Part shown: in pieces, positions 6,364 to 17,061 of the stretch | Numbering within the stretch: the first letter of the stretch is position 1 | How the letters are laid out: every line of letters begins with the position of its first letter | Origin: an uncultured virus (IMG/VR IMGVR_UViG_3300031963_000055) | Taxonomy: Duplodnaviria; Heunggongvirae; Uroviricota; Caudoviricetes | DNA length: 26,719 bases | Strand: one strand, 5' to 3' | Virus record (IMG/VR): IMGVR_UViG_3300031963_000055 | Notes under the pieces: model-generated | Seen by the model: the letters and a program-made list of their open reading frames with translations, nothing else | Databases searched by the model: none | What the model was told of the DNA's origin: nothing | Translations under genes and position numbers: made by a program

Positions 6364-7041
6364 TTATTCGTTAGTGTTATTAATCAAAGGATTAAATGAT
6401 TGTGTTCTTTTACCCTCTATTCCTTCTAATGCAATGCTTACTGCGGTGTCTACTAATTCATTATGAATATGTTCTGATAATTCACAAGTAATATTTCCAG
6501 ATAAACTCATTTTAACAGGTTGTCTTAAATATCGTAATTGATAATCTACAATTGTACAATTTGATATTAATTCAACTTTTCCTGCTATCATAAGTCTAAG
6601 AACTTTTTCATTATTAGGTTTAGCAAAAGGATCTTTTAAAGATTTAGATGCTTCTAAATGAGTAATTGGTATTACTTCAACTCTTTGTGTTATTGGAGTA
6701 CCACAATTAGTACAAGTTATTCCAGCTCTCTCCTGTATAGTAAACCAATGGTTAGTTGGTAAATTTACAAATCTAGCATTAGCATCTATATTGTTTACTG
6801 AGTAAGCTAAAGGAGTTAGTATTGTATTTTCTGTAATATTCTTTAAATCCTCTGTACGCTTCTGAGTTTCTTCAAAAGATTGTCTTTTAGCATTATTAAA
6901 ACCATACCTTTGTTTAATTAACCTATCCTGAGCATTATTCAATATCAAATCAATCTCTTCAGGTAAGAAGTTAGGATAGTTTAAGGCATCCATTTTATCT
7001 AACCTAAATTTAAATTCAATATGAAATTGAGATATTGTCAT
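6364..7041 (-). CDS. crAss-like tail ring / head-tail connector protein
   Basis: Motifs EEIDLILNNAQ, SFEETQKRTEDL, YLRQP, CELSEHIHNELVDTAV typical of crAss ring proteins; two genes downstream of MCP. Confidence 0.7.
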   Translation of the reverse strand: MTISQFHIEFKFRLDKMDALNYPNFLPEEIDLILNNAQDRLIKQRYGFNNAKRQSFEETQKRTEDLKNITENTILTPLAYSVNNIDANARFVNLPTNHWFTIQERAGITCTNCGTPITQRVEVIPITHLEASKSLKDPFAKPNNEKVLRLMIAGKVELISNCTIVDYQLRYLRQPVKMSLSGNITCELSEHIHNELVDTAVSIALEGIEGKRTQSFNPLINNTNE

Positions 7042-7918: not shown

Positions 7919-9370
7919 CTAGCTAATGCTAGAAGCATCTAAAATTAATTGAGCCGCATCTGAAGGATCTCTTAACATGATACCACATTCAGTCATTGCT
8001 TCAAATGTGTAACCATCTACTGAACTTGCAGATGAACCATTCTTCTTAGGTCCATAAGGTCCATACATACCTTCGATGTAAGTTGTTACCATCTCACGAT
8101 CTTTAGAGTATACTTTTTGAATATTTGGTTCTCCTTTGTTATAAGACTTAAAGTTTAAGAAAGTTGCTTTGTAAGACTCAGCTGGTTTACCAGTTTGAGG
8201 GTGTAACAAACGATTTCTTACAACATCATTATAAGGCTTGTATTCTTTTAAAGTAATCTTATCACCATTTAAACCTGTGTAAGTCATGAACTGGCCATGT
8301 AACTCTAAGTTTTGTCCTTCACCTGCAATGAATTTACTATCAACTAAGTTGAAAGCAGATGCACTACGTTTCATAGCTTGATCAAATAAGTTCATGAACT
8401 CACGACCACATAATGCTACATACTCACGAGGACCATCTTCAGTACCATTGTATGCTAAATCTCCCATGAAATCACGGATAGTTTTCTCATTCAAAGTAGT
8501 GTATAAACGTTTGTTACCTGGAGCAATTTGAGATTCTAATCCAGCACCAGAATAAATAGTATTTCCTGAAGCACCTTTTAAATCTGTAGTACCGTTAGAT
8601 TTAACGTTAGATTCACCAAACATTAAACTAATTTCAATCTCATCCATGAACTGTTTCCAGAATTCCCACTCAGCATATTTTACCCAAGTGTTAGTTTTTT
8701 CATTAGTTTCAGGATTTAACATTGAGATAACCATAACACGGCTGTGAGCAGCACCAGTTACAGAATATTTTTTACGCAATGTAGACATAAAGTTTTCTAA
8801 CATCATTGGTGTAGCATAGTGAGTTTCACCAGATGTACGAGAATGATCATGCTCTACTAAGTTGTATTCTTTAGATACCTCTTTACCAACTACTAATAAC
8901 GCTCCTGGGATTGCTTTAGTAATATCAGCAGTAACTAATTGACACACTAAGATGTAATCAGCTCCGTCATAAATTGGTTCAGAAATTACACGAGCTTTAT
9001 AATCTGGACTGTCAAATAATAAAACGTCACCTTCTGAGAACCATTTTTCACCTACACCAATTTTAAAAGTTGTAGCATTGATACCTACTGAAGCAGCAGC
9101 ATCAAATACTGAACGTGTAATTGAAATAGCTTTACGAGAATCTCCAATGATATTCCAACGATATTGGATACCATCAATCTCTTTAGATTTACCCATACCA
9201 CCTGTTAAGAATGATAGAGCATTTTTATAACCGTTTTGTTTGTTATAAATACGAGTGATAACTTGACTAGCAATAGCTGGCTCAGTTAAAAAGAAACTAG
9301 ACAAATGTGAATCTTGAGTAAGACCCGCATGCCAGTTCATGTTTGTTATTTGTAATGGACTAATTTGCAT
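7919..9370 (-). CDS. major capsid protein (crAss-like, HK97 fold)
   Basis: 483 aa; motifs STLRKKYSVTG, GAGLESQI, HPQTGKPAESY, VDGY, GIMLRDP; order portal-scaffold-MCP. Confidence 0.9.
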   Translation of the reverse strand: MQISPLQITNMNWHAGLTQDSHLSSFFLTEPAIASQVITRIYNKQNGYKNALSFLTGGMGKSKEIDGIQYRWNIIGDSRKAISITRSVFDAAASVGINATTFKIGVGEKWFSEGDVLLFDSPDYKARVISEPIYDGADYILVCQLVTADITKAIPGALLVVGKEVSKEYNLVEHDHSRTSGETHYATPMMLENFMSTLRKKYSVTGAAHSRVMVISMLNPETNEKTNTWVKYAEWEFWKQFMDEIEISLMFGESNVKSNGTTDLKGASGNTIYSGAGLESQIAPGNKRLYTTLNEKTIRDFMGDLAYNGTEDGPREYVALCGREFMNLFDQAMKRSASAFNLVDSKFIAGEGQNLELHGQFMTYTGLNGDKITLKEYKPYNDVVRNRLLHPQTGKPAESYKATFLNFKSYNKGEPNIQKVYSKDREMVTTYIEGMYGPYGPKKNGSSASSVDGYTFEAMTECGIMLRDPSDAAQLILDASSIS

Positions 9371-9402: not shown

Positions 9403-10533
9403 TTAAATTAAGCCATTATTTAATGCTTGGCGGAAAGCACTGAAGTTACTTGAAGATTTTTCTTGACTAAAACTATCTGATTGACCAGTTTTTAATTTAG
9501 ATCTACTATCTCCTTTAAAGTTAGATAACTTACTAGCTAACTCTGAACTTACTTTATTCTTTACTTGTTTTTCTAACTTACTCATATCCCAATCATTCAT
9601 TGCTAAATAAGCATACATAAATTGAGCATTTTCGTTAGTTTCATTATGCTTCTGTAAACCAGTCTTACCTGATTTATCGGGTTTCATAATGAAGTCCCAA
9701 AGATTATCTTTTAATTTGGGAGTTAACTTAAACCCTTGAATTTCATCTTTAGAATATAATTTGTCTTTAAACTCCTCATATTGTTTTTTAGCTAAAGCCT
9801 TTTGTTCAGCATCATATTTCTTTTGAACTTCAACTAACTGTTCTTGATAAGACTTTTCAGCATTTTGTAATTTAGTTAAAGCTGTTTTAGCTTTCTTTTC
9901 CAATATACCAGAAACTTCATATGTATCAAGAGTTTCATTAATTTCTTCTTCATCTTCACCTTGAGCTTTTAAATACTCTTTTAAAACAACTTTTGAATCA
10001 GATTCATCTTCTAATTTAAAGTCTGCCCAAGAACTTTGGTTGTAATAAAGATCCATAAATTGTTTAGGATCTCCACCTGCTTCAACAAATTCTACAAGTT
10101 TGTGTACATCTTCAGGTAAACTTTGTTTATACCTTTCAACTTCTTTCTCAACTGTAGTACTCATTAGTTTTTTTAAACCATCTTCAGAATCTTCAAAAGT
10201 TTCTTCATCATAGTCTACTAAACCTTTATCTCCTAACCAACTTGCAAATACTTTGAGAGAAGAACTCTCTTCAGTAGTTTCTTGTTTAGTCTCAACTTCA
10301 GCAACTTCTTCAGGTGCTTTAGTTTCTTCTTTGGGGATGTCTTTAACAACCTCTTTTGTAACTTCCTTAGTTTCATCAACTGGTGTCACGTCTTCTAGAT
10401 TTTCAAGTAATGGTTGAGCTACTGAATTATTCTCTTTAAAATCTGAAGAATATTCATCATTAAACTGCATTTCCATACCTTCACCAAATGGTGTATCTAG
10501 GATATTAAATTCCTTTTGTTTTTCCTTACTCAT
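9403..10533 (-). CDS. putative capsid scaffolding protein
   Basis: 376 aa, highly acidic and helical, directly upstream of MCP. Confidence 0.6.
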   Translation of the reverse strand: MSKEKQKEFNILDTPFGEGMEMQFNDEYSSDFKENNSVAQPLLENLEDVTPVDETKEVTKEVVKDIPKEETKAPEEVAEVETKQETTEESSSLKVFASWLGDKGLVDYDEETFEDSEDGLKKLMSTTVEKEVERYKQSLPEDVHKLVEFVEAGGDPKQFMDLYYNQSSWADFKLEDESDSKVVLKEYLKAQGEDEEEINETLDTYEVSGILEKKAKTALTKLQNAEKSYQEQLVEVQKKYDAEQKALAKKQYEEFKDKLYSKDEIQGFKLTPKLKDNLWDFIMKPDKSGKTGLQKHNETNENAQFMYAYLAMNDWDMSKLEKQVKNKVSSELASKLSNFKGDSRSKLKTGQSDSFSQEKSSSNFSAFRQALNNGLI

Positions 10534-10629: not shown

Positions 10630-11154
10630 TTATCCTTTTAATTCTGTATCAAATAATCTCATTGCTATCTTATCTTCACCAAAAGCTTCTAATTTATCTA
10701 TATAAGTTTGAACTTTTCCTAGTTCTTCTTGTTGTTCAGTTAAGAATTTCATAGCTAATTGATATAATAAATGATTACCATATTTCATAGCATGTGAAGC
10801 TAATTCATTACATTGTTGAGTAACCATTATTTCATGAGCAAATGATTGTCTAATAATATCAGGTAATCCAGCAAATACTTGAGGAGGTTCTTTTAAAGCC
10901 GGTAACTTTGGAGTTACTCCCATATCTAAAAGAAAATCTTTAGCCCATTGAGCATGTTTCATCTCATCTTCAGAATCCTTTAACCAGGCTGAAGCTGCTC
11001 CAGTATATCCATGATCATTTAACCATAAAGACATTATTTGATATAGCCGACTAGAATATTCTTCTTGCTCAATTCTATAATTTAATATATCAATGCATTC
11101 TTTAGATGCAAAAGGGTTTTTAACCCCACCAAGTTTTACTTTAGGTACTTCCAT
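10630..11154 (-). CDS. ftnA: ferritin (FtnA-like)
   Basis: EEYSSRLYQIMSLW...GAA...EDEMKH...HEIMVT...EQQEE matches the bacterial non-haem ferritin pattern (ELYSS.LY..MS.W, EEM.H, HE..IT, EQ.EE). Confidence 0.85.
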   Translation of the reverse strand: MEVPKVKLGGVKNPFASKECIDILNYRIEQEEYSSRLYQIMSLWLNDHGYTGAASAWLKDSEDEMKHAQWAKDFLLDMGVTPKLPALKEPPQVFAGLPDIIRQSFAHEIMVTQQCNELASHAMKYGNHLLYQLAMKFLTEQQEELGKVQTYIDKLEAFGEDKIAMRLFDTELKG

Positions 11155-13733
11155 TATTTTTTAGGTTTATTAGATTTAGCTTTAGCTGCGGCCAACTTCA
11201 TACGTTCTATCTCCATCTTTTTATTCATCATATCTTTATCTAAAGCAGCTTTCTTATTAGCTAATTCAATTTGATTCTTATTTTGAATTTTAATTTGTTC
11301 AAGTTTCTTATTTTCTAGATCTTGTTTCATTCTAATCTCTTTATCTTTTTGAGCTAACTGAGCATCATGTTTAGATTTATCATGTCCAATCTTAGATTGT
11401 TCTAAGAATGCTTTAGATGATAATTCTTGTTGTTTTAATGCATTAGCCGCAATCTCTGAAGGATCAGGGATACCATTATCATTTTGATCTAAATCTTGTT
11501 GTCTAGCAAATACACCAATCTCAGCAATTTGAATTTTTGTAGAATTATTAGCTTCAGCAATATATCTTTCTTGATCAAGTTTTAAATGATCTAATTCAAC
11601 TTGTTCAGCATGCATTTGTTGTTGAATAGCTTCAACTTTCATTTCATGCTCTTGTTGAGCTTTAGAACTATCAGCTTGACGTTTATAGAACTCCTCTTCT
11701 TTACGTTGTAACAATCTTACAATATCTCTAGGAGAATCATTCATTAATGTTTCAACTATTGAAGATAAATCTATTTTTTCAGACTGTAATGCTACTTGAA
11801 CTAATTGGTCTAACTTAGCTTTTAATTCAAGATCTTTAGTATTGTTAGTTACAAATACATTAAACTCTGAATTCTCAAATTCATTCTCTTCTAGGTTAAG
11901 CATCTCAATACCCATATCATCTAAGACATACTGAGCAACTAATCCTTTCTTATAACATATCTTAGCAACTTCAATCATTGCTGTATAGGCTCTACGTTTA
12001 ACTTCAGCATGAGCTTCGTACAAATATTCAGTAATTAATGATGATTGATTAACAGATCTTTCTACATTACCAACTAGTTCAGAGTTATTAATAGCACCTA
12101 AACGTTGAGGTGTAACACCAGATACAAAGGCTACTTGTTGTTTAATGTAATCCAACATATTGATATATTGTTGAATAGATTGACTAAGACTTAAATCAAT
12201 TGCTTGAAACTGATTAAACTTGTTGGCCAATTGTCCTGTAGCAGCACCTTTCTTACCTTCCTCAAATGAGTTAATGAATGCAATATTCATCTCTTTAAGA
12301 TAGTACATCCACTTATCAATATCGATACCTTGACTTTGAGGTATCTGAGCTAAGTCCATGATGAACTTCTTACCTTGATCTGAAGCAAATGCTATCTCTA
12401 ATCTATAAGATATAATATCATATAAATATTGATAAGGTTTTAATCTGTCAATTAAACTAACTGATTGAGAGTTAGTAGCTTCATATATAAATCCTGTATA
12501 ACCTAATCTGCAGTAGTATGGATTATCCAATCTACGTCTTTGGTTAGGTTTAGGTTTAATGTCTGTAAATATATCTAATCCAATTTTAACACCTTCCCAA
12601 GCTTCATTGATCCAATACCATTCTACTTTAGCATCAGGGAAAGCTTCTTTAAATATTCTAGTATTAAAGAATTCATCTACAATCTCTGTATTAACAGTTC
12701 CTTCTTCATCAGTCCAAGTTAACTCACCAATCTTCTTCATTGATTTCCATTCAACTCTAGTAACTCTAATAGAATAGTTATTACTATTATTTCCATTATA
12801 AGCATTAGTTGGAGTAACTCCTGCAAAAGCATTTTGTCCATTAACTACATCAAACTGAGGTTCAAATCCACCTGCTGTATTAAAAGAACCAAAGGTCCCT
12901 CTAGTATAATTTTCTAATTTCTCTATATCTGCTTTAGATAGAATATCACCATATTCATCTAAAATAGTATTGATGGCCAACATACGTTCTTCAACTACTG
13001 CTATAGCATCATCAATAAAAGTAGTATCTCCATCTAGTATCACAGTTAAGTTAACTGGATTAACTCTACGCATAGCTACTTCATCATTCTCAATACCTAC
13101 CCAATAAATCTCTTCTCCAGCAATTAAAGCATCTTTCCATCCTTGAGAAAATAATAATCTAGTATTACATTTCTTCTTTAAAGACTTAAGAATCTTGTTA
13201 GCTTTAGATTCAATTATATCCGACGGTGTATATTTTTCATGCTTGATAATTTCTTCCGGTGGAGGTGGTGGATTATTAGGATCTGCATTAGGATCAATTT
13301 GATAAGCCAAACCTTGTTGTAAAGCCTGGAAAATCTTTTCCTTAATTGCTGAAGTCTTTCTGTTAATATCATCTGGAGATTCAGATACCACAATATGATT
13401 ATCTGGACGTTTAGTTTCCTCACCAATAAGTAACTTAATTGGTTCAGAGATGATGTCATAATGTTGAAATCTAGCGGGAAATGTATTTGAAGTATTGATA
13501 CCCAATGGATCACATATAGTTTCAATATCCTTATGGTTGACTTTACCATTATATAAATCGTAGTTAATTAACTTTCTAAGTCTATCAGAACGCAGATTAC
13601 TACCATTAGTATATCTGTAATTTGAATAATAATTAATGCAAGACTTACCCCACTCTTTGTCTTTGCTAGACATAGGTAACTTTTGTTGTGGTAAATTCTG
13701 ACCACCTAAATTGGCGTATATATCTTGACTCAT
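11154..13733 (-). CDS. portal protein
   Basis: 859 aa directly after the terminase; crAss-type motifs NYDLYNG, LLIGEE, WINEAWEG, LKPYQYLY, SGVTPQRLG; long C-terminal coiled coil with DQNDNGIPD. Confidence 0.9.
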   Translation of the reverse strand: MSQDIYANLGGQNLPQQKLPMSSKDKEWGKSCINYYSNYRYTNGSNLRSDRLRKLINYDLYNGKVNHKDIETICDPLGINTSNTFPARFQHYDIISEPIKLLIGEETKRPDNHIVVSESPDDINRKTSAIKEKIFQALQQGLAYQIDPNADPNNPPPPPEEIIKHEKYTPSDIIESKANKILKSLKKKCNTRLLFSQGWKDALIAGEEIYWVGIENDEVAMRRVNPVNLTVILDGDTTFIDDAIAVVEERMLAINTILDEYGDILSKADIEKLENYTRGTFGSFNTAGGFEPQFDVVNGQNAFAGVTPTNAYNGNNSNNYSIRVTRVEWKSMKKIGELTWTDEEGTVNTEIVDEFFNTRIFKEAFPDAKVEWYWINEAWEGVKIGLDIFTDIKPKPNQRRRLDNPYYCRLGYTGFIYEATNSQSVSLIDRLKPYQYLYDIISYRLEIAFASDQGKKFIMDLAQIPQSQGIDIDKWMYYLKEMNIAFINSFEEGKKGAATGQLANKFNQFQAIDLSLSQSIQQYINMLDYIKQQVAFVSGVTPQRLGAINNSELVGNVERSVNQSSLITEYLYEAHAEVKRRAYTAMIEVAKICYKKGLVAQYVLDDMGIEMLNLEENEFENSEFNVFVTNNTKDLELKAKLDQLVQVALQSEKIDLSSIVETLMNDSPRDIVRLLQRKEEEFYKRQADSSKAQQEHEMKVEAIQQQMHAEQVELDHLKLDQERYIAEANNSTKIQIAEIGVFARQQDLDQNDNGIPDPSEIAANALKQQELSSKAFLEQSKIGHDKSKHDAQLAQKDKEIRMKQDLENKKLEQIKIQNKNQIELANKKAALDKDMMNKKMEIERMKLAAAKAKSNKPKK

Positions 13734-15823
13734 TGGTTTGTACTTGTGTTAAATTGGGAATTCTTCCTATTAAATATAAGGCCTTTTTTATAAATTCTTT
13801 CTAAGTAATTACTAATAGGGTTAGCATCATTTGATAGCTCTTCTACATGTATTCTATGTAATTCATAGGTTTGTAAAATACATAGCATTAACGCAATAAC
13901 TCTATCTGTATTTATTTCTCTATCATAAGCTATTAACTCTTTTAGCAATGGTATAGATTTAATAGTCTGAAATCTAAGTTGTTTAGTTCCTTCTACCTCA
14001 CCATTAATTTCCTCATATAACCATTTCTTAAGATATAACTCACACTGATCTTTAATACCCGCCGCACCTCCAGATCCTCTATTCATATGGATACCATATC
14101 CACGTTGAACTCTAGAATCCTTAATCATATCCTTAATAATACCAGGTTGTTCACACATATATTGTAGAGAGTTCTTTTGTTCAAAGTATACCTTTAAACC
14201 TTTTAACTGGTTCTCATACAATACTTTAGAGTTATAATACATACATAGTTTTCTACATACTTCATAAAACTCTTCTGCAGTATCTGGTCTAGATGTGTAT
14301 TCAGCAACTATAATATCATGAGTTCTATCCGCTCTATAAAATCTCTTATAGACAAAGAATGAGCCTAGAGATCCAGATTCTGATTTATCTTGATCATAAG
14401 GGTCACATCCTGCAATATATAAGTAATTAGGTATCTCACCATTCTCATGTTTCTCAGGGTGTTCCCAAATCACTGCACAGCCATTTGTAGAGAATGATTC
14501 TCCTGACTTAGGATCTTTTCTTAAAGGGAAGTCTGTAATATGAACTAAGTCATCATTAGGTCTCCATTTAACATATCCATCATCAAAGAATAGTTCACCT
14601 TTCTGAGCTTGACCTCTAAGACTAGGAGTATTCTCTAAATGACCTAACCATTCTAACATCTCTGGAGAACCAAAGACATTACCTTTATTTCTTAAAAAAG
14701 CTTCTTTCCAAGTACAAGGGAATTGAGTAGTAATATTATGAATTGCTTTAGGATCTAAACCATGTTTAGCCTTAGCTCTTAAAAAGTCAATATCATCTTG
14801 AGCTGCTTCATAGTTAGAGTTACCATCTTCATCAACCATAGGTTTTTTATACCATTTAGATTCTGGATTAAGACATAAGCCTAATCTGCCTTTTGTAGCT
14901 GAACTAAAGAACCCTATCCTGCCATTAGGATTAAATGGATCCTCAAAATCTAACATGTTGTATTTTTCAGGATTAGTAAACATCTCATAGAAATACTTAC
15001 TCCCTGAATCCATGTCTCCAGAAGATCCAAATAACAGAGCTACACCTGTGTATGTACTACCGTCTTTTATAAGGGGTTCAGAGTAACCATATGCATCTAC
15101 AATGTTTCCAAAAACACCGCATTCGTCGAGGATTAACCAGTTAGCACTAAGCCCAACACCACTAGTAGGATTATCTTTGTAGCTAATGGCACGCACTTCG
15201 GAATTAAACCCCTTCCACACCTTAACCCCGCTAACAGTTGCCTGATACCTTGCCTTAATAAAGTCTTTAAGGTCAGGATTTCTTTGCTTTCTGAATTCAG
15301 TATTCATATTGATAAAATTTGAATTATCAATAACCATATTCATAGTGTTTTGACTAAAGGTGCTGTAAAAAGCACCTATAATTGCTTTACTATCTGGATA
15401 GAAATAGAATTCATGTGTACATATTGCTGCAGCTTTGTAAGACCAACCTTGACGACGACCTTTTACAGCAACTAGTGATTTTTGATTTAGTCTACAATAT
15501 TCTACCATGTGGAAGAATTCATAATCTAAATCTATAAATCTAGGAAAGATTTTAGATTTCTTTCCAGTCTTTTCATTAAGACCTAATATTGGACAGAAGT
15601 TTAAATAGAAAAAATGTTGACCAGTAATATGTTGCCCACAAGAGTTAGTAAATCCATTTAAACATTTATCTCTAACATCTTGCCAGAACTCTACATATTC
15701 TATAGTTCCTGGAATAGAGTTAGTATATAATCCTGTTCTATTATATTGTTCAGCAAGATATGAAAACTCTTTAGTATTCTTAAAGTAGTCTACACATATT
15801 ACGTATTTATTGTCATTCAGCAT
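13730..15823 (-). CDS. terL: terminase large subunit
   Basis: Walker A-like KGRRQGWS, Walker B LILDE, nuclease motifs IAGCDPY, LYEN, TDRV; ATGA overlap with the portal gene. Confidence 0.93.
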   Translation of the reverse strand: MLNDNKYVICVDYFKNTKEFSYLAEQYNRTGLYTNSIPGTIEYVEFWQDVRDKCLNGFTNSCGQHITGQHFFYLNFCPILGLNEKTGKKSKIFPRFIDLDYEFFHMVEYCRLNQKSLVAVKGRRQGWSYKAAAICTHEFYFYPDSKAIIGAFYSTFSQNTMNMVIDNSNFINMNTEFRKQRNPDLKDFIKARYQATVSGVKVWKGFNSEVRAISYKDNPTSGVGLSANWLILDECGVFGNIVDAYGYSEPLIKDGSTYTGVALLFGSSGDMDSGSKYFYEMFTNPEKYNMLDFEDPFNPNGRIGFFSSATKGRLGLCLNPESKWYKKPMVDEDGNSNYEAAQDDIDFLRAKAKHGLDPKAIHNITTQFPCTWKEAFLRNKGNVFGSPEMLEWLGHLENTPSLRGQAQKGELFFDDGYVKWRPNDDLVHITDFPLRKDPKSGESFSTNGCAVIWEHPEKHENGEIPNYLYIAGCDPYDQDKSESGSLGSFFVYKRFYRADRTHDIIVAEYTSRPDTAEEFYEVCRKLCMYYNSKVLYENQLKGLKVYFEQKNSLQYMCEQPGIIKDMIKDSRVQRGYGIHMNRGSGGAAGIKDQCELYLKKWLYEEINGEVEGTKQLRFQTIKSIPLLKELIAYDREINTDRVIALMLCILQTYELHRIHVEELSNDANPISNYLERIYKKGLIFNRKNSQFNTSTNQ

Positions 15824-15824
15824 A

Positions 15825-16133
15825 TTAAAACATTATATGTAATTCATAACCATCTACAGCAGATGCTGAACATCCATTTTTATTTTTAAAAGGACTACAT
15901 ACACCTTCAAGATATGATAATACTTTTATGTCTTCAGGTTTTAAGTTATATTGTTCTAATGTTTTTAATTCATTATCTAATATCCAACTTTGATTTCCTT
16001 TAAAATTAATTTCTATTGGTGTATTATTACAACCAATAACTAACATGTATCTTTTTATATTTTTTAAATCTAATCCTTTTTTAGATTCATTTAATAAAAA
16101 AGTTGAATAATGATTTTCTTTTGTAAATTCCAT
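15825..16133 (-). CDS. small protein with MCP-like N- and C-terminal segments
   Basis: FTKENHYSTFLLNE resembles MCP 17-30; YLEGVCSPFKNKNGCSASAVDGY resembles MCP 431-454. Confidence 0.75.
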   Translation of the reverse strand: MEFTKENHYSTFLLNESKKGLDLKNIKRYMLVIGCNNTPIEINFKGNQSWILDNELKTLEQYNLKPEDIKVLSYLEGVCSPFKNKNGCSASAVDGYELHIMF

Positions 16134-16135
16134 AA

Positions 16136-16657
16136 TTATTTATCTTCAAACATTCCAAGCTGAGCATCTCCTCTAACTTTATTACCAGATGATTGTTCTT
16201 TATTACAATTATCTAAAGCTGATTGAACAGCTTCTTGCATCTTAGGCATATCTATAATTGCCTTTTGAATTTTAGTAATACTATCCTCATTGTATTCTGC
16301 AGTCTTAAAGAACTCCTCCATTTTACCAATAGATTCTTGAACAGCTTTAAACAATCTCATTGCAGGAGTAGTATGTATTTTATCGTACATATTAATACAA
16401 GCTAAAAGTTCTTCCGTCATTTTAAACTTAGGTTCTTTTAAAATATGATCTACAATTAATTTATGCTTATCTACATTACTATGTTGGAAGAATGGTGATT
16501 TAAATGAAGCATAATACCAAGTGTATTTAATTATGTTAAATGCATGAGTTTTATCTTTAGATTTATCTTTCTCCCACACAGATTTGAATGGTTCTATAAC
16601 CAAACATTCTGGAGCTACAATAATCTTACTATCTTTTAAATCTATTATTTTAATCAT
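16136..16657 (-). CDS. helical protein upstream of terL; candidate small terminase subunit
   Basis: 173 aa, helical, near terL; function inferred from position only. Confidence 0.45.
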   Translation of the reverse strand: MIKIIDLKDSKIIVAPECLVIEPFKSVWEKDKSKDKTHAFNIIKYTWYYASFKSPFFQHSNVDKHKLIVDHILKEPKFKMTEELLACINMYDKIHTTPAMRLFKAVQESIGKMEEFFKTAEYNEDSITKIQKAIIDMPKMQEAVQSALDNCNKEQSSGNKVRGDAQLGMFEDK

Positions 16658-17061
16658 TAATTTTTTAATCTTTTAAATTTAGTATAAGCTTTTTCAAAAA
16701 ATTCAATTGTTTCACTTAATAAATACCCTTGTAGATAAGCATAAGTTTCATTGGCATCTTTTTTCTTAAATATTATATTTTTATGTTCTAAAATATCTTG
16801 AGTTAAATGTAATAATTCATGACCTATTGTATCAAAGTAATATTTTTTATTTACATCATATTTAACAATTAATACATGTAATCTAGTCTCATATTTAGAA
16901 GTAAATTTATTAAAAACACACCCTCTACATTCAATAAATTCTTCATCAATGTCATATTGTGTTTTTAAATCTTTTTTAACATTGTTAAAATTATCTATGA
17001 CATAGACACTAACAAGACAACCATATATAGGTATTATTAATTCTTTATGCATATGTATCAA
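16657..17061 (-). CDS. zincin-like metallopeptidase
   Basis: HEXXH motif (GHELLH) and downstream NETYAY third-ligand motif. Confidence 0.7.
   Translation of the reverse strand: MIHMHKELIIPIYGCLVSVYVIDNFNNVKKDLKTQYDIDEEFIECRGCVFNKFTSKYETRLHVLIVKYDVNKKYYFDTIGHELLHLTQDILEHKNIIFKKKDANETYAYLQGYLLSETIEFFEKAYTKFKRLKN

Follow-up and report, generated by a model that had tools for sequence, protein, structure and literature searches.

A 102-residue crAss-like phage protein apparently derived from the major capsid protein and encoded in an accessory cassette beside terL

The uncultured virus record IMGVR_UViG_3300031963_000055 (Caudoviricetes) comprises 26,719 nucleotides (nt), and this whole stretch of DNA is referred to here as the window. 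Its minus strand encodes the head and packaging module of a freshwater crAss-like phage. Within this module, between a conserved gene for a protein of 173 amino acids (aa) and the large terminase gene terL, lies a short gene encoding a protein of 102 aa, here called mini-MCP because of its resemblance to the major capsid protein (MCP). Profile comparisons indicate that mini-MCP is descended from a crAss-type HK97-fold MCP, and it is very probably a functional MCP-derived protein. The gene is an accessory cassette. The best explanation of its role, to which we assign a probability of roughly 45%, is that mini-MCP would act as a non-polymerising stand-in for the peripheral face of the MCP, with the phage's own head assembly as the likeliest setting. 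The mini-MCP gene, the MCP gene and their corresponding segments are located as follows.

15825..16133, minus strand: open reading frame (ORF) of the mini-MCP gene, 102 aa (P0002)
7919..9370, minus strand: crAss-type MCP gene, 483 aa (P0001)
16074..16130, minus strand: mini-MCP residues 2-20 (EFTKENHYSTFLLNESKKG), N-arm-like, aligning to MCP 16-34
9269..9325, minus strand: MCP residues 16-34 with the N-arm motif GLTQDSHLSSFFLTE, counterpart of mini-MCP 2-20
15945..16058, minus strand: mini-MCP residues 26-63, three strands and a helix, aligning to MCP 197-242
8645..8782, minus strand: MCP residues 197-242, the strands before the spine helix and the start of that helix, counterpart of mini-MCP 26-63
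15828..15926, minus strand: mini-MCP residues 70-102, a beta-hairpin with a long loop (VLSYLEGVCSPF...SASAVDGYELHIMF), homologous to the P-loop hairpin at MCP 427-460
7991..8131, minus strand: MCP residues 414-460 (hairpin YIEGMYGPYGPKKNGSSASSVDGYTFEAM), counterpart of mini-MCP 61-102

The window MCP matches the Pfam model PF23898 (Crass_capsid) at 8.2e-123, PHROG 11589, and crAss001 gp32 (PDB 7qof) at 3.8e-39; the MCPs of the nearest GenBank phages are less than 40% identical to it. Comparison of mini-MCP with this protein gives a strong match at the C-terminus. The 14 identities in 24 positions that a preliminary description of this DNA had reported there were found again, and BLASTP extends the match to 16 identities in 32 positions with one gap (mini-MCP 70-101 against MCP 427-459; E 1e-7, calculated for a single comparison). 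In the shuffling check that the same description had proposed, the Smith-Waterman score of 76 was reached by none of 2000 shuffles of the mini protein (mean 31.7, standard deviation 4.9, maximum 56). The DNA string said to be common to both genes is also present, as the 11-mer GTAGATGGTTA on the coding strand, and the local DNA alignment of the two hairpins that includes it has a score of 23, which was reached by none of 300 codon shuffles (mean 14.5, maximum 20). The N-terminal match that had been claimed is a more qualified case. Its six identities in 14 positions (mini-MCP 3-16, MCP 17-30) are real and the placement is supported at the profile level, but the pairwise match alone is not significant: the BLASTP E value is 0.057, the score was reached by 74 of 2000 shuffles (residues 1-40), and 215 of 2000 shuffles reached the score of residues 1-69 against MCP 1-426.

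Mini-MCP belongs to a family of small proteins. Because a word-index search for homologues found only two relatives (98% and 61% identity), an exhaustive profile search was needed. A profile built from the window protein and these two relatives was run against 1.84 billion representatives, and returned 27 matches at E <= 0.001, of which 14 had E <= 1e-10. The members are 100-187 aa long, none having the length of an MCP, and in a 28-sequence family alignment (A2) their identity to the window protein is 25-61%. Residues H8 and G77 are invariant in A2, and W50, E55, Y74, P81, D94 and Y96 are at least 90% conserved. One member of 182 aa (P0006) has a C-terminal extension with a motif (..L..LNL.EK.DLVERA..L..) that recurs in a separate 84-aa gene (contig L062, 3800-4051) lying in the same slot as the mini-MCP gene; the two small genes are thus fused or adjacent in some phages.

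No Pfam model was matched at E <= 0.01 by any of the 28 members, PHROGs gave two single-member matches only (0.002 and 0.009), and NCBIfam and PADLOC gave nothing for the three members tested. A tblastn search of 50,697 GenBank phage records with P0002, P0005 and P0023 gave no match, and scans of IMG/VR with P0005, P0009 and P0012 gave no locus. The best ESM Atlas score, 0.86, was under the 0.9 level taken as a lead and came with unrelated names; a cluster look-up gave no informative names. Three metagenome hits (L007-L009) were dropped as weak, N-terminal only and located in bacterial intergenic DNA.

Comparison of profiles supports common ancestry. Alignment of A2 by hhalign with 30 MCPs from the window's clade (A5) placed mini-MCP 70-102 on MCP 427-460 with a probability of 96.3% (E 1.5e-9). 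Against a more diverse MCP profile of 24 sequences, drawn from two environmental clades plus FpV4 and cr56_1, the C-terminal match had a probability of 97.2% (E 3.8e-11), and mini-MCP 3-63 matched MCP 179-242 at E 1.3e-4. A hidden Markov model (HMM) of the family made without the window protein and its 61% relative matched window MCP 430-460 at 6.8e-6 (525 ORFs) and the MCP of the Flavobacterium phage FpV4 at the same place at 0.011; the cr56_1 MCP was the best match of its locus with this reduced HMM, at a non-significant level. Among the ORFs of 92 sources, the family HMM matched 79 of at least 250 aa at E <= 1e-3, and every match inspected was an MCP ORF matched in its C-terminal hairpin. 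In one contig (L067, 8888-10343), where the MCP frame is broken, a 101-aa ORF with the hairpin (10041-10343) matched the family HMM at 3.8e-6; this candidate was rejected as a mini-MCP gene, being an assembly error or a frameshifted MCP.

The preliminary description had presented mini-MCP as joining the N- and C-terminal ends of the MCP. Both ends are represented, but that account was incomplete: on the segment placements and their shuffles, the best composite consists of three collinear pieces (MCP 16-34, 197-242 and 414-460) covering nearly the whole mini protein, and the last of them stops 23 residues short of the MCP C-terminus. With the first 22 columns of A2 taken alone, mini-MCP 2-20 falls on MCP 16-34 with an hhalign score of 18.6 (E 0.0029), and none of 150 column shuffles reached this score (maximum 17.1). 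Mini-MCP 26-63 falls on MCP 197-242 with a score of 20.9 (E 0.0034), again reached by none of 150 column shuffles (maximum 18.0), and here G34, W50 and E55 of mini-MCP align with G206, W229 and E234 of the MCP. A single block placing mini-MCP 2-63 on MCP 178-242 scored 28.1 and was reached by none of 200 shuffles; the N-arm placement was then the second-best alignment, with a score of 20.0 that two of 200 shuffles reached. Another possible placement of the N-terminus is MCP 178-197 (ETHYATP...); with the first 22 columns aligned on their own, the N-arm placement has the higher score.

All eight key positions of the family fall on identical MCP residues that are invariant in A5 (H22, W229, E234, Y431, G434, P438, D452 and Y454). 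When a second MCP clade was added to the alignment (A6), six of the eight remained invariant or at least 90% conserved, with H22 (at least 90% conserved) and E234 nearly invariant and Y431 replaced by H in the second clade; G434, P438, D452, G453, Y454 and W229 are invariant in A6. The MCP-like residues are thus the most conserved positions of the family, which is the opposite of the outcome that the preliminary description had named as fatal to its proposal. The hhalign results, the shuffles and the eight key residues all support common descent with the Crassvirales MCP, and the core idea of a small protein derived from the MCP stands: the homology is real and is conserved across the family.

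The AlphaFold2 model of mini-MCP, computed on A2, is a confident single domain (mean pLDDT 86.1, pTM 0.74). It has five strands and two helices (helices 9-15 and 53-61; strands 28-34, 39-44, 47-52, 71-76 and 95-101), with a poorly defined loop at 77-94. The AlphaFold model of the window MCP, which came from a shallow alignment, is poor (mean pLDDT 55.4, below 50 in the three regions of interest). Its relevant elements are strands 214-218 and 225-229, a long helix at 230-251, and strands 428-431 and 456-459. The order of elements is alike in the mini-MCP model and the corresponding MCP segments: a helix, three strands, a helix, a strand, a long loop and a strand.

Only MCP 16-34, 197-242 and 414-460 have counterparts in mini-MCP, which does not contain a full HK97 fold with E-loop and A-domain. 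By analogy with known capsid proteins, we infer that it corresponds to an N-arm plus P-domain without the E-loop/insertion domain and without the A-domain, which builds the hexamers and pentamers. Descent would have involved loss of the E-loop and insertion domain (MCP residues ~35-196), the A-domain (~243-413) and the C-terminal 23 residues. Four elements would have been kept and refolded into a compact alpha/beta domain: the helix motif of the N-arm, the strands that run into the spine helix, the initial turns of the latter, and the P-loop hairpin. At 102 aa, and lacking the C-terminal strands as well as the A-domain and the E-loop with its insertion domain, mini-MCP could not serve as a shell-forming subunit. 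The parts that appear to be kept have described contacts in HK97-type capsids: one report describes how the E-loop of a neighbouring subunit wraps around the P-domain and pairs with the P-loop, how P-loops come together in a trefoil at the three-fold positions, and how the N-arm helix is bound by the C-terminal helix of the scaffold (PMC5644958). The insertion domain of crAss001 is described as lying in the E-loop (gp32 residues 79-180; PMC10172136).

The genomic position of mini-MCP was as first described, at 15825-16133 on the minus strand with a product of 102 aa, and the gene does end 1 nt before the start of terL (ATG at 15823), as had been noted; it begins 2 nt after the stop codon of the 173-aa gene. 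The two borders of this slot are as follows.

13730..15823, minus strand: large terminase gene terL (PHROG 6681, 9.3e-116), downstream border
16136..16657, minus strand: conserved 173-aa gene (PHROG 16390, weak), upstream border

In close relatives of the phage (MCP ~96% identical, terL 85-89%), the 173-aa gene directly abuts terL. DNA alignment shows that the difference is a clean indel of ~311 nt: the relatives read stop-A/T-ATG where the window reads stop-TT-[mini-MCP gene]-T-ATG. A census was made of contigs of the window MCP clade that include the 173-aa gene and the start of terL; after eight window-identical contigs were set aside, 26 remained, counted as contigs, some of them near-duplicates, and not as lineages. 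Direct abutment was found in 19 of these, other inserts in six, and a mini-MCP gene in one (L063), leaving 25 of the 26 without one. The L063 protein (P0011) is 39% identical to the window protein and is encoded in the same slot. Five relatives that are 96-100% complete have no mini-MCP gene anywhere, the family profile finding only the MCP hairpin. The same profile gave no match in the genomes of crAss001 (at E <= 0.1) and cr56_1, and only the MCP hairpin in FpV4. In a second, distant clade (MCP 37% identical), a family member (P0029) was found in one of 15 contigs, seven of which cover at least 9 kb upstream of the MCP gene; in this contig (L092) the mini-MCP gene lies just upstream of the 173-aa homologue and not beside terL.

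The slot is also a hot spot for other small cassettes (L058 2536-3153, L055 3408-4045, L046 2951-3560, L024 1767-2018 and L062 3800-4051). The inserts include a 206-aa ORF with an HNH-like, Cys/His-rich C-terminus, which is endonuclease-like, and several ORFs of 84-122 aa of unknown function.

The gene lies inside the head/packaging operon. There are no terminator-like sites, and sigma-70-type promoter sites are uninformative, 17 being found where 16.5 were expected. The precise slot, the 1-2 nt spacers and the lack of a terminator-like site suggest that mini-MCP is probably co-produced with the head and packaging proteins. The region from 15300 to 16700 is present near letter-for-letter in 14 DNA runs of 13 studies labelled as freshwater or fungus metagenomes; in two raw-read DNA runs the phage was not found. 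A 151-nt contig of depth 2 from a wastewater RNA library (run X16; window 16131-16245) joins the end of the 173-aa gene to a terL-like start, and the phage behind it is a relative without the mini-MCP gene.

Between the two clades, the hairpin motif varies in step with the resident MCP. Of the 28 family members, seven have W-[YC]-x-[PS]-G-[SAM] around the invariant glycine and 18 have Y-x-E-G, the remaining three being intermediate. In the second clade 13 of 13 MCPs carry W-H-I-[AP]-G-S, and those of the window clade read Y-[IV]-E-G. The only W-type member of known context (L092) is in the W-type MCP clade, and both Y-x-E-G members of known context are in the Y-[IV]-E-G clade. Alignment scores follow a similar trend: with its own MCP the L092 mini protein reaches 82, compared with 40 and 32 for the other two, that of L063 scores 62 against its own and 59 and 38 against the others, and the window mini-MCP scores 76, 77 and 71 against the three MCPs. 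Recent gene conversion was set aside as the origin of the common motif. It is unlikely because codon identity in the hairpin is not raised, the same codon being used at 10 of 16, five of 13 and six of 17 identical hairpin residues. Between the clades, the mini proteins share 37% identity over 94 aa, which makes them far closer to each other than either is to an MCP outside the hairpin, and this favours a single origin.

A model consistent with these data is that mini-MCP would occupy a partner that normally binds the peripheral face of the MCP. Mimicry of this face is, on balance, the probable mode of action. The partner would most probably be found in the phage's own head assembly, as the E-loop or P-loop of free MCP or as the MCP-binding end of the scaffold, and its occupation would cap or delay growth of the lattice. 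The stand-in is the most economical reading because the contact-making parts have been kept and the capsomer-building part has been lost. That the partner belongs to the phage's own assembly machinery rather than being an antagonist is itself only a tentative proposal; it is slightly preferred over an antagonist, for example a capsid sensor of the host or a factor from a satellite. The operon position and the precedent of Ccm and CpmB, discussed below, favour the assembly reading.

Several results weigh against the stand-in reading. The tip of the loop is variable across the family, which speaks against a conserved P-loop trefoil contact. Structure searches did not recover a capsid fold: Foldseek gave no match of the mini-MCP model to the PDB at E <= 0.001, and in a wide search with VIA the best Z was 3.2, for a common small alpha/beta arrangement. 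An encapsulin shell appeared at Z 2.9 in the latter, among many unrelated rows, and no HK97-fold match stood out. The MCP model is too poor to place the three pieces in one substructure. The parallel variation amounts to three gene pairs and in effect one clade contrast, and the tracking is incomplete, since in the second strand mini-MCP keeps DGYE-x-HI where its own MCP subclade has DGY[TV]FEA. In a tree of mini-MCP residues 1-69, based on a short alignment and without usable support, the W-type members do not group. Two RNA-library runs contained flanking pieces only, at depth 2, with no coverage of the mini-MCP gene. Finally, mini-MCP is dispensable for assembly, as relatives with 96%-identical MCPs lack it; dispensability fits an antagonist-directed role at least as well, and the patchy distribution and variable slot favour such a role.

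The most serious alternative, though an unlikely one, is that mini-MCP would serve as a decoy or sponge against an MCP-recognising antagonist, either a host capsid sensor or a satellite protein that redirects capsids. It would display conserved, hard-to-change parts of the MCP without building a capsid, blunting abortive infection or piracy when MCP is made. This would account for an accessory, patchy gene (one of 26 related contigs, absent from five near-complete relatives) in a slot that in relatives houses variable small genes and an HNH-type endonuclease, for conserved positions that are exactly the MCP-conserved ones, and for a hairpin type that follows the resident MCP. Bacterial sensors are reported to bind MCPs, with Avs7, Avs8 and Avs10 wrapping the HK97 fold and Lit and CapRel reading short motifs (bioRxiv 10.64898/2026.01.04.697583). 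However, the same report has Avs7/8/10 engaging mainly the A-domain, which is missing in mini-MCP, and a motif-reading sensor might be triggered, not blocked, by a mimic. A literature search found no capsid-mimic decoy, and no PADLOC or other family was matched. A narrower version, in which a phage-encoded capsid microprotein, an N-arm-plus-P-domain remnant passed between crAss-like phages as a cassette and matched to the resident MCP, would titrate a host capsid sensor or a satellite capsid-redirecting factor, is somewhat less likely still. Mini-MCP could instead be aimed at co-infecting relatives, poisoning the head assembly of related crAss-like phages in a dominant-negative manner that the producer's MCP tolerates. 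The mini hairpin is indeed closer to MCPs of a sister subclade (62.5% over 32 aa for L080, 59% for L070) than to its own (50%), its second strand DGYELHIM has the form of the sister subclades (DGYEFHIM) where its own MCP has DGYTFEAM, and satellite MCP homologues that divert assembly are described (Ccm; PMC8569155). This weapon is nevertheless improbable: DGY[TV]FEA is common to a whole subclade that is mostly without the mini-MCP gene, and is therefore not a resistance change tied to it, and the L092 mini protein matches its own MCP best.

Structural and packaging roles are less probable again. Since the pentamer is missing at the portal vertex, the surrounding hexamers would be without partner P-domains, and mini-MCP could be a minor virion protein filling that vacancy. 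The gene adjoins terL and the portal, the correspondence of hairpin type with the resident MCP would be accounted for by a homotypic contact, and work on crAss001 describes a small vertex-specific protein (modelled to at least residue 88) that replaces the normal auxiliary protein at the portal vertex (PMC10172136). This role is rated slightly below the weapon. Against it, most relatives whose head genes are near-identical lack mini-MCP, searches with the family profile recover nothing from the crAss001 genome and no crAss001 chain from the PDB sequences, and the loop tip is not conserved. Proximity to terL, 1 nt away, might suggest a small terminase subunit or packaging-specificity factor, which is very improbable: 25 of 26 related contigs lack the gene and have the 173-aa gene in the position beside terL; the L092 copy is located upstream of the 173-aa gene; and the homology is to a capsid protein, with a predicted fold that is a small alpha/beta sheet domain. 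Equally remote is chance resemblance, or a functionless, decaying leftover of a partial MCP duplication. The non-significant N-terminal pairwise match and the lack of coverage in the RNA-library runs would fit such an origin, but full length and the eight key residues are preserved in 27 representatives with identities of 25-61%, the fold prediction is confident, the gene is near-identical in 14 DNA runs of 13 studies, and the BLASTP, hhalign and shuffle statistics all argue against it.

We regard mini-MCP as the product of an accessory gene that derives from a capsid protein and retains a third of its fold. Separate genes derived from capsid proteins are known as full-length shell subunits or as satellite tools. 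The T4 vertex protein gp24, a paralogue of the MCP gp23, is an essential, full-length shell subunit; like mini-MCP it comes from a second gene of capsid-protein origin within one phage genome, whereas mini-MCP represents a third of the fold and is dispensable. The parent family of mini-MCP is the Crassvirales MCP (PF23898; gp32, PDB 7QOF), with which it has three collinear segments and all eight key residues in common, but it has 102 aa as opposed to ~483, and none of the 28 family members reaches the Pfam model at E <= 0.01. Ccm of SaPIbov5 is similar in being a capsid-protein homologue encoded by a separate gene and acting on head assembly; it is, however, a satellite-encoded, full HK97-fold protein that forms pentamers (PMC8569155), while mini-MCP is a phage-encoded fragment without the A-domain, its gene lying inside a phage head/packaging operon and not in a satellite. 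CpmB of SaPI1 is a small protein that carries the binding element of a head-assembly protein and competes for its partner, the mode of action proposed here for mini-MCP, and structural work is described as showing competition between CpmB and the 80alpha scaffolding protein for the latter's site on the capsid protein (PMC5644958). CpmB is scaffold-like and satellite-encoded, whereas mini-MCP is capsid-like and would compete only by inference. The crAss001 portal-vertex auxiliary protein gp57 is likewise a small head-associated protein of a crAss-like phage, which the available text does not report as MCP-derived (PMC10172136); in a search of PDB sequences at E <= 10, the mini-MCP family profile found no crAss001 chain and hence no sequence relation to gp57. 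No crAss001 entry was among the Foldseek or VIA matches listed, and a weak or missing match is compatible with a shared fold. A full-text literature search for truncated or mimicking phage capsid proteins, assessed on its listings and on the papers cited here, found no conserved family of ~100 residues retaining just those peripheral parts of the HK97 fold that make contacts.

The remaining annotated genes of the head and packaging module are as follows.

11154-13733, minus strand: portal (PHROG 6547)
10630-11154, minus strand: ferritin-like protein, 174 aa (Pfam PF00210, 4.6e-22; PHROG 16594)
9403-10533, minus strand: 376-aa gene, scaffold candidate
6364-7041, minus strand: tail ring protein

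The ferritin-like gene lies between the portal and scaffold-candidate genes, where cr56_1 has other genes. The 173-aa gene is kept beside or near terL in FpV4, cr56_1 and both environmental clades (L011 3575-4144; L010 1342-1875); this conserved position, together with the lack of a known family, makes it a candidate small terminase subunit. In GenBank MT774379 / NC_055872 (cr118_1; 81653-83458), the MCP match consists of two joined pieces under two features named major capsid protein, so the MCP gene of that phage is split or interrupted. The host of the window phage is presumably a member of the Bacteroidota, as for cultured crAss-like phages.

To our knowledge, neither a scaffold nor an assembly pathway has been worked out for crAss-like phages. 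If mini-MCP binds the partners of the MCP peripheral face, it would provide a natural minimal probe for the contacts of crAss-like head assembly. If mini-MCP were instead a decoy, it would represent a new class of counter-defence, the first based on mimicry of a phage's own structural protein, and would point to capsid sensing in the hosts of these phages. The mini-MCP gene is also a clear case of a new gene that arose when a structural gene underwent internal deletion and that has since stayed matched to its parent.

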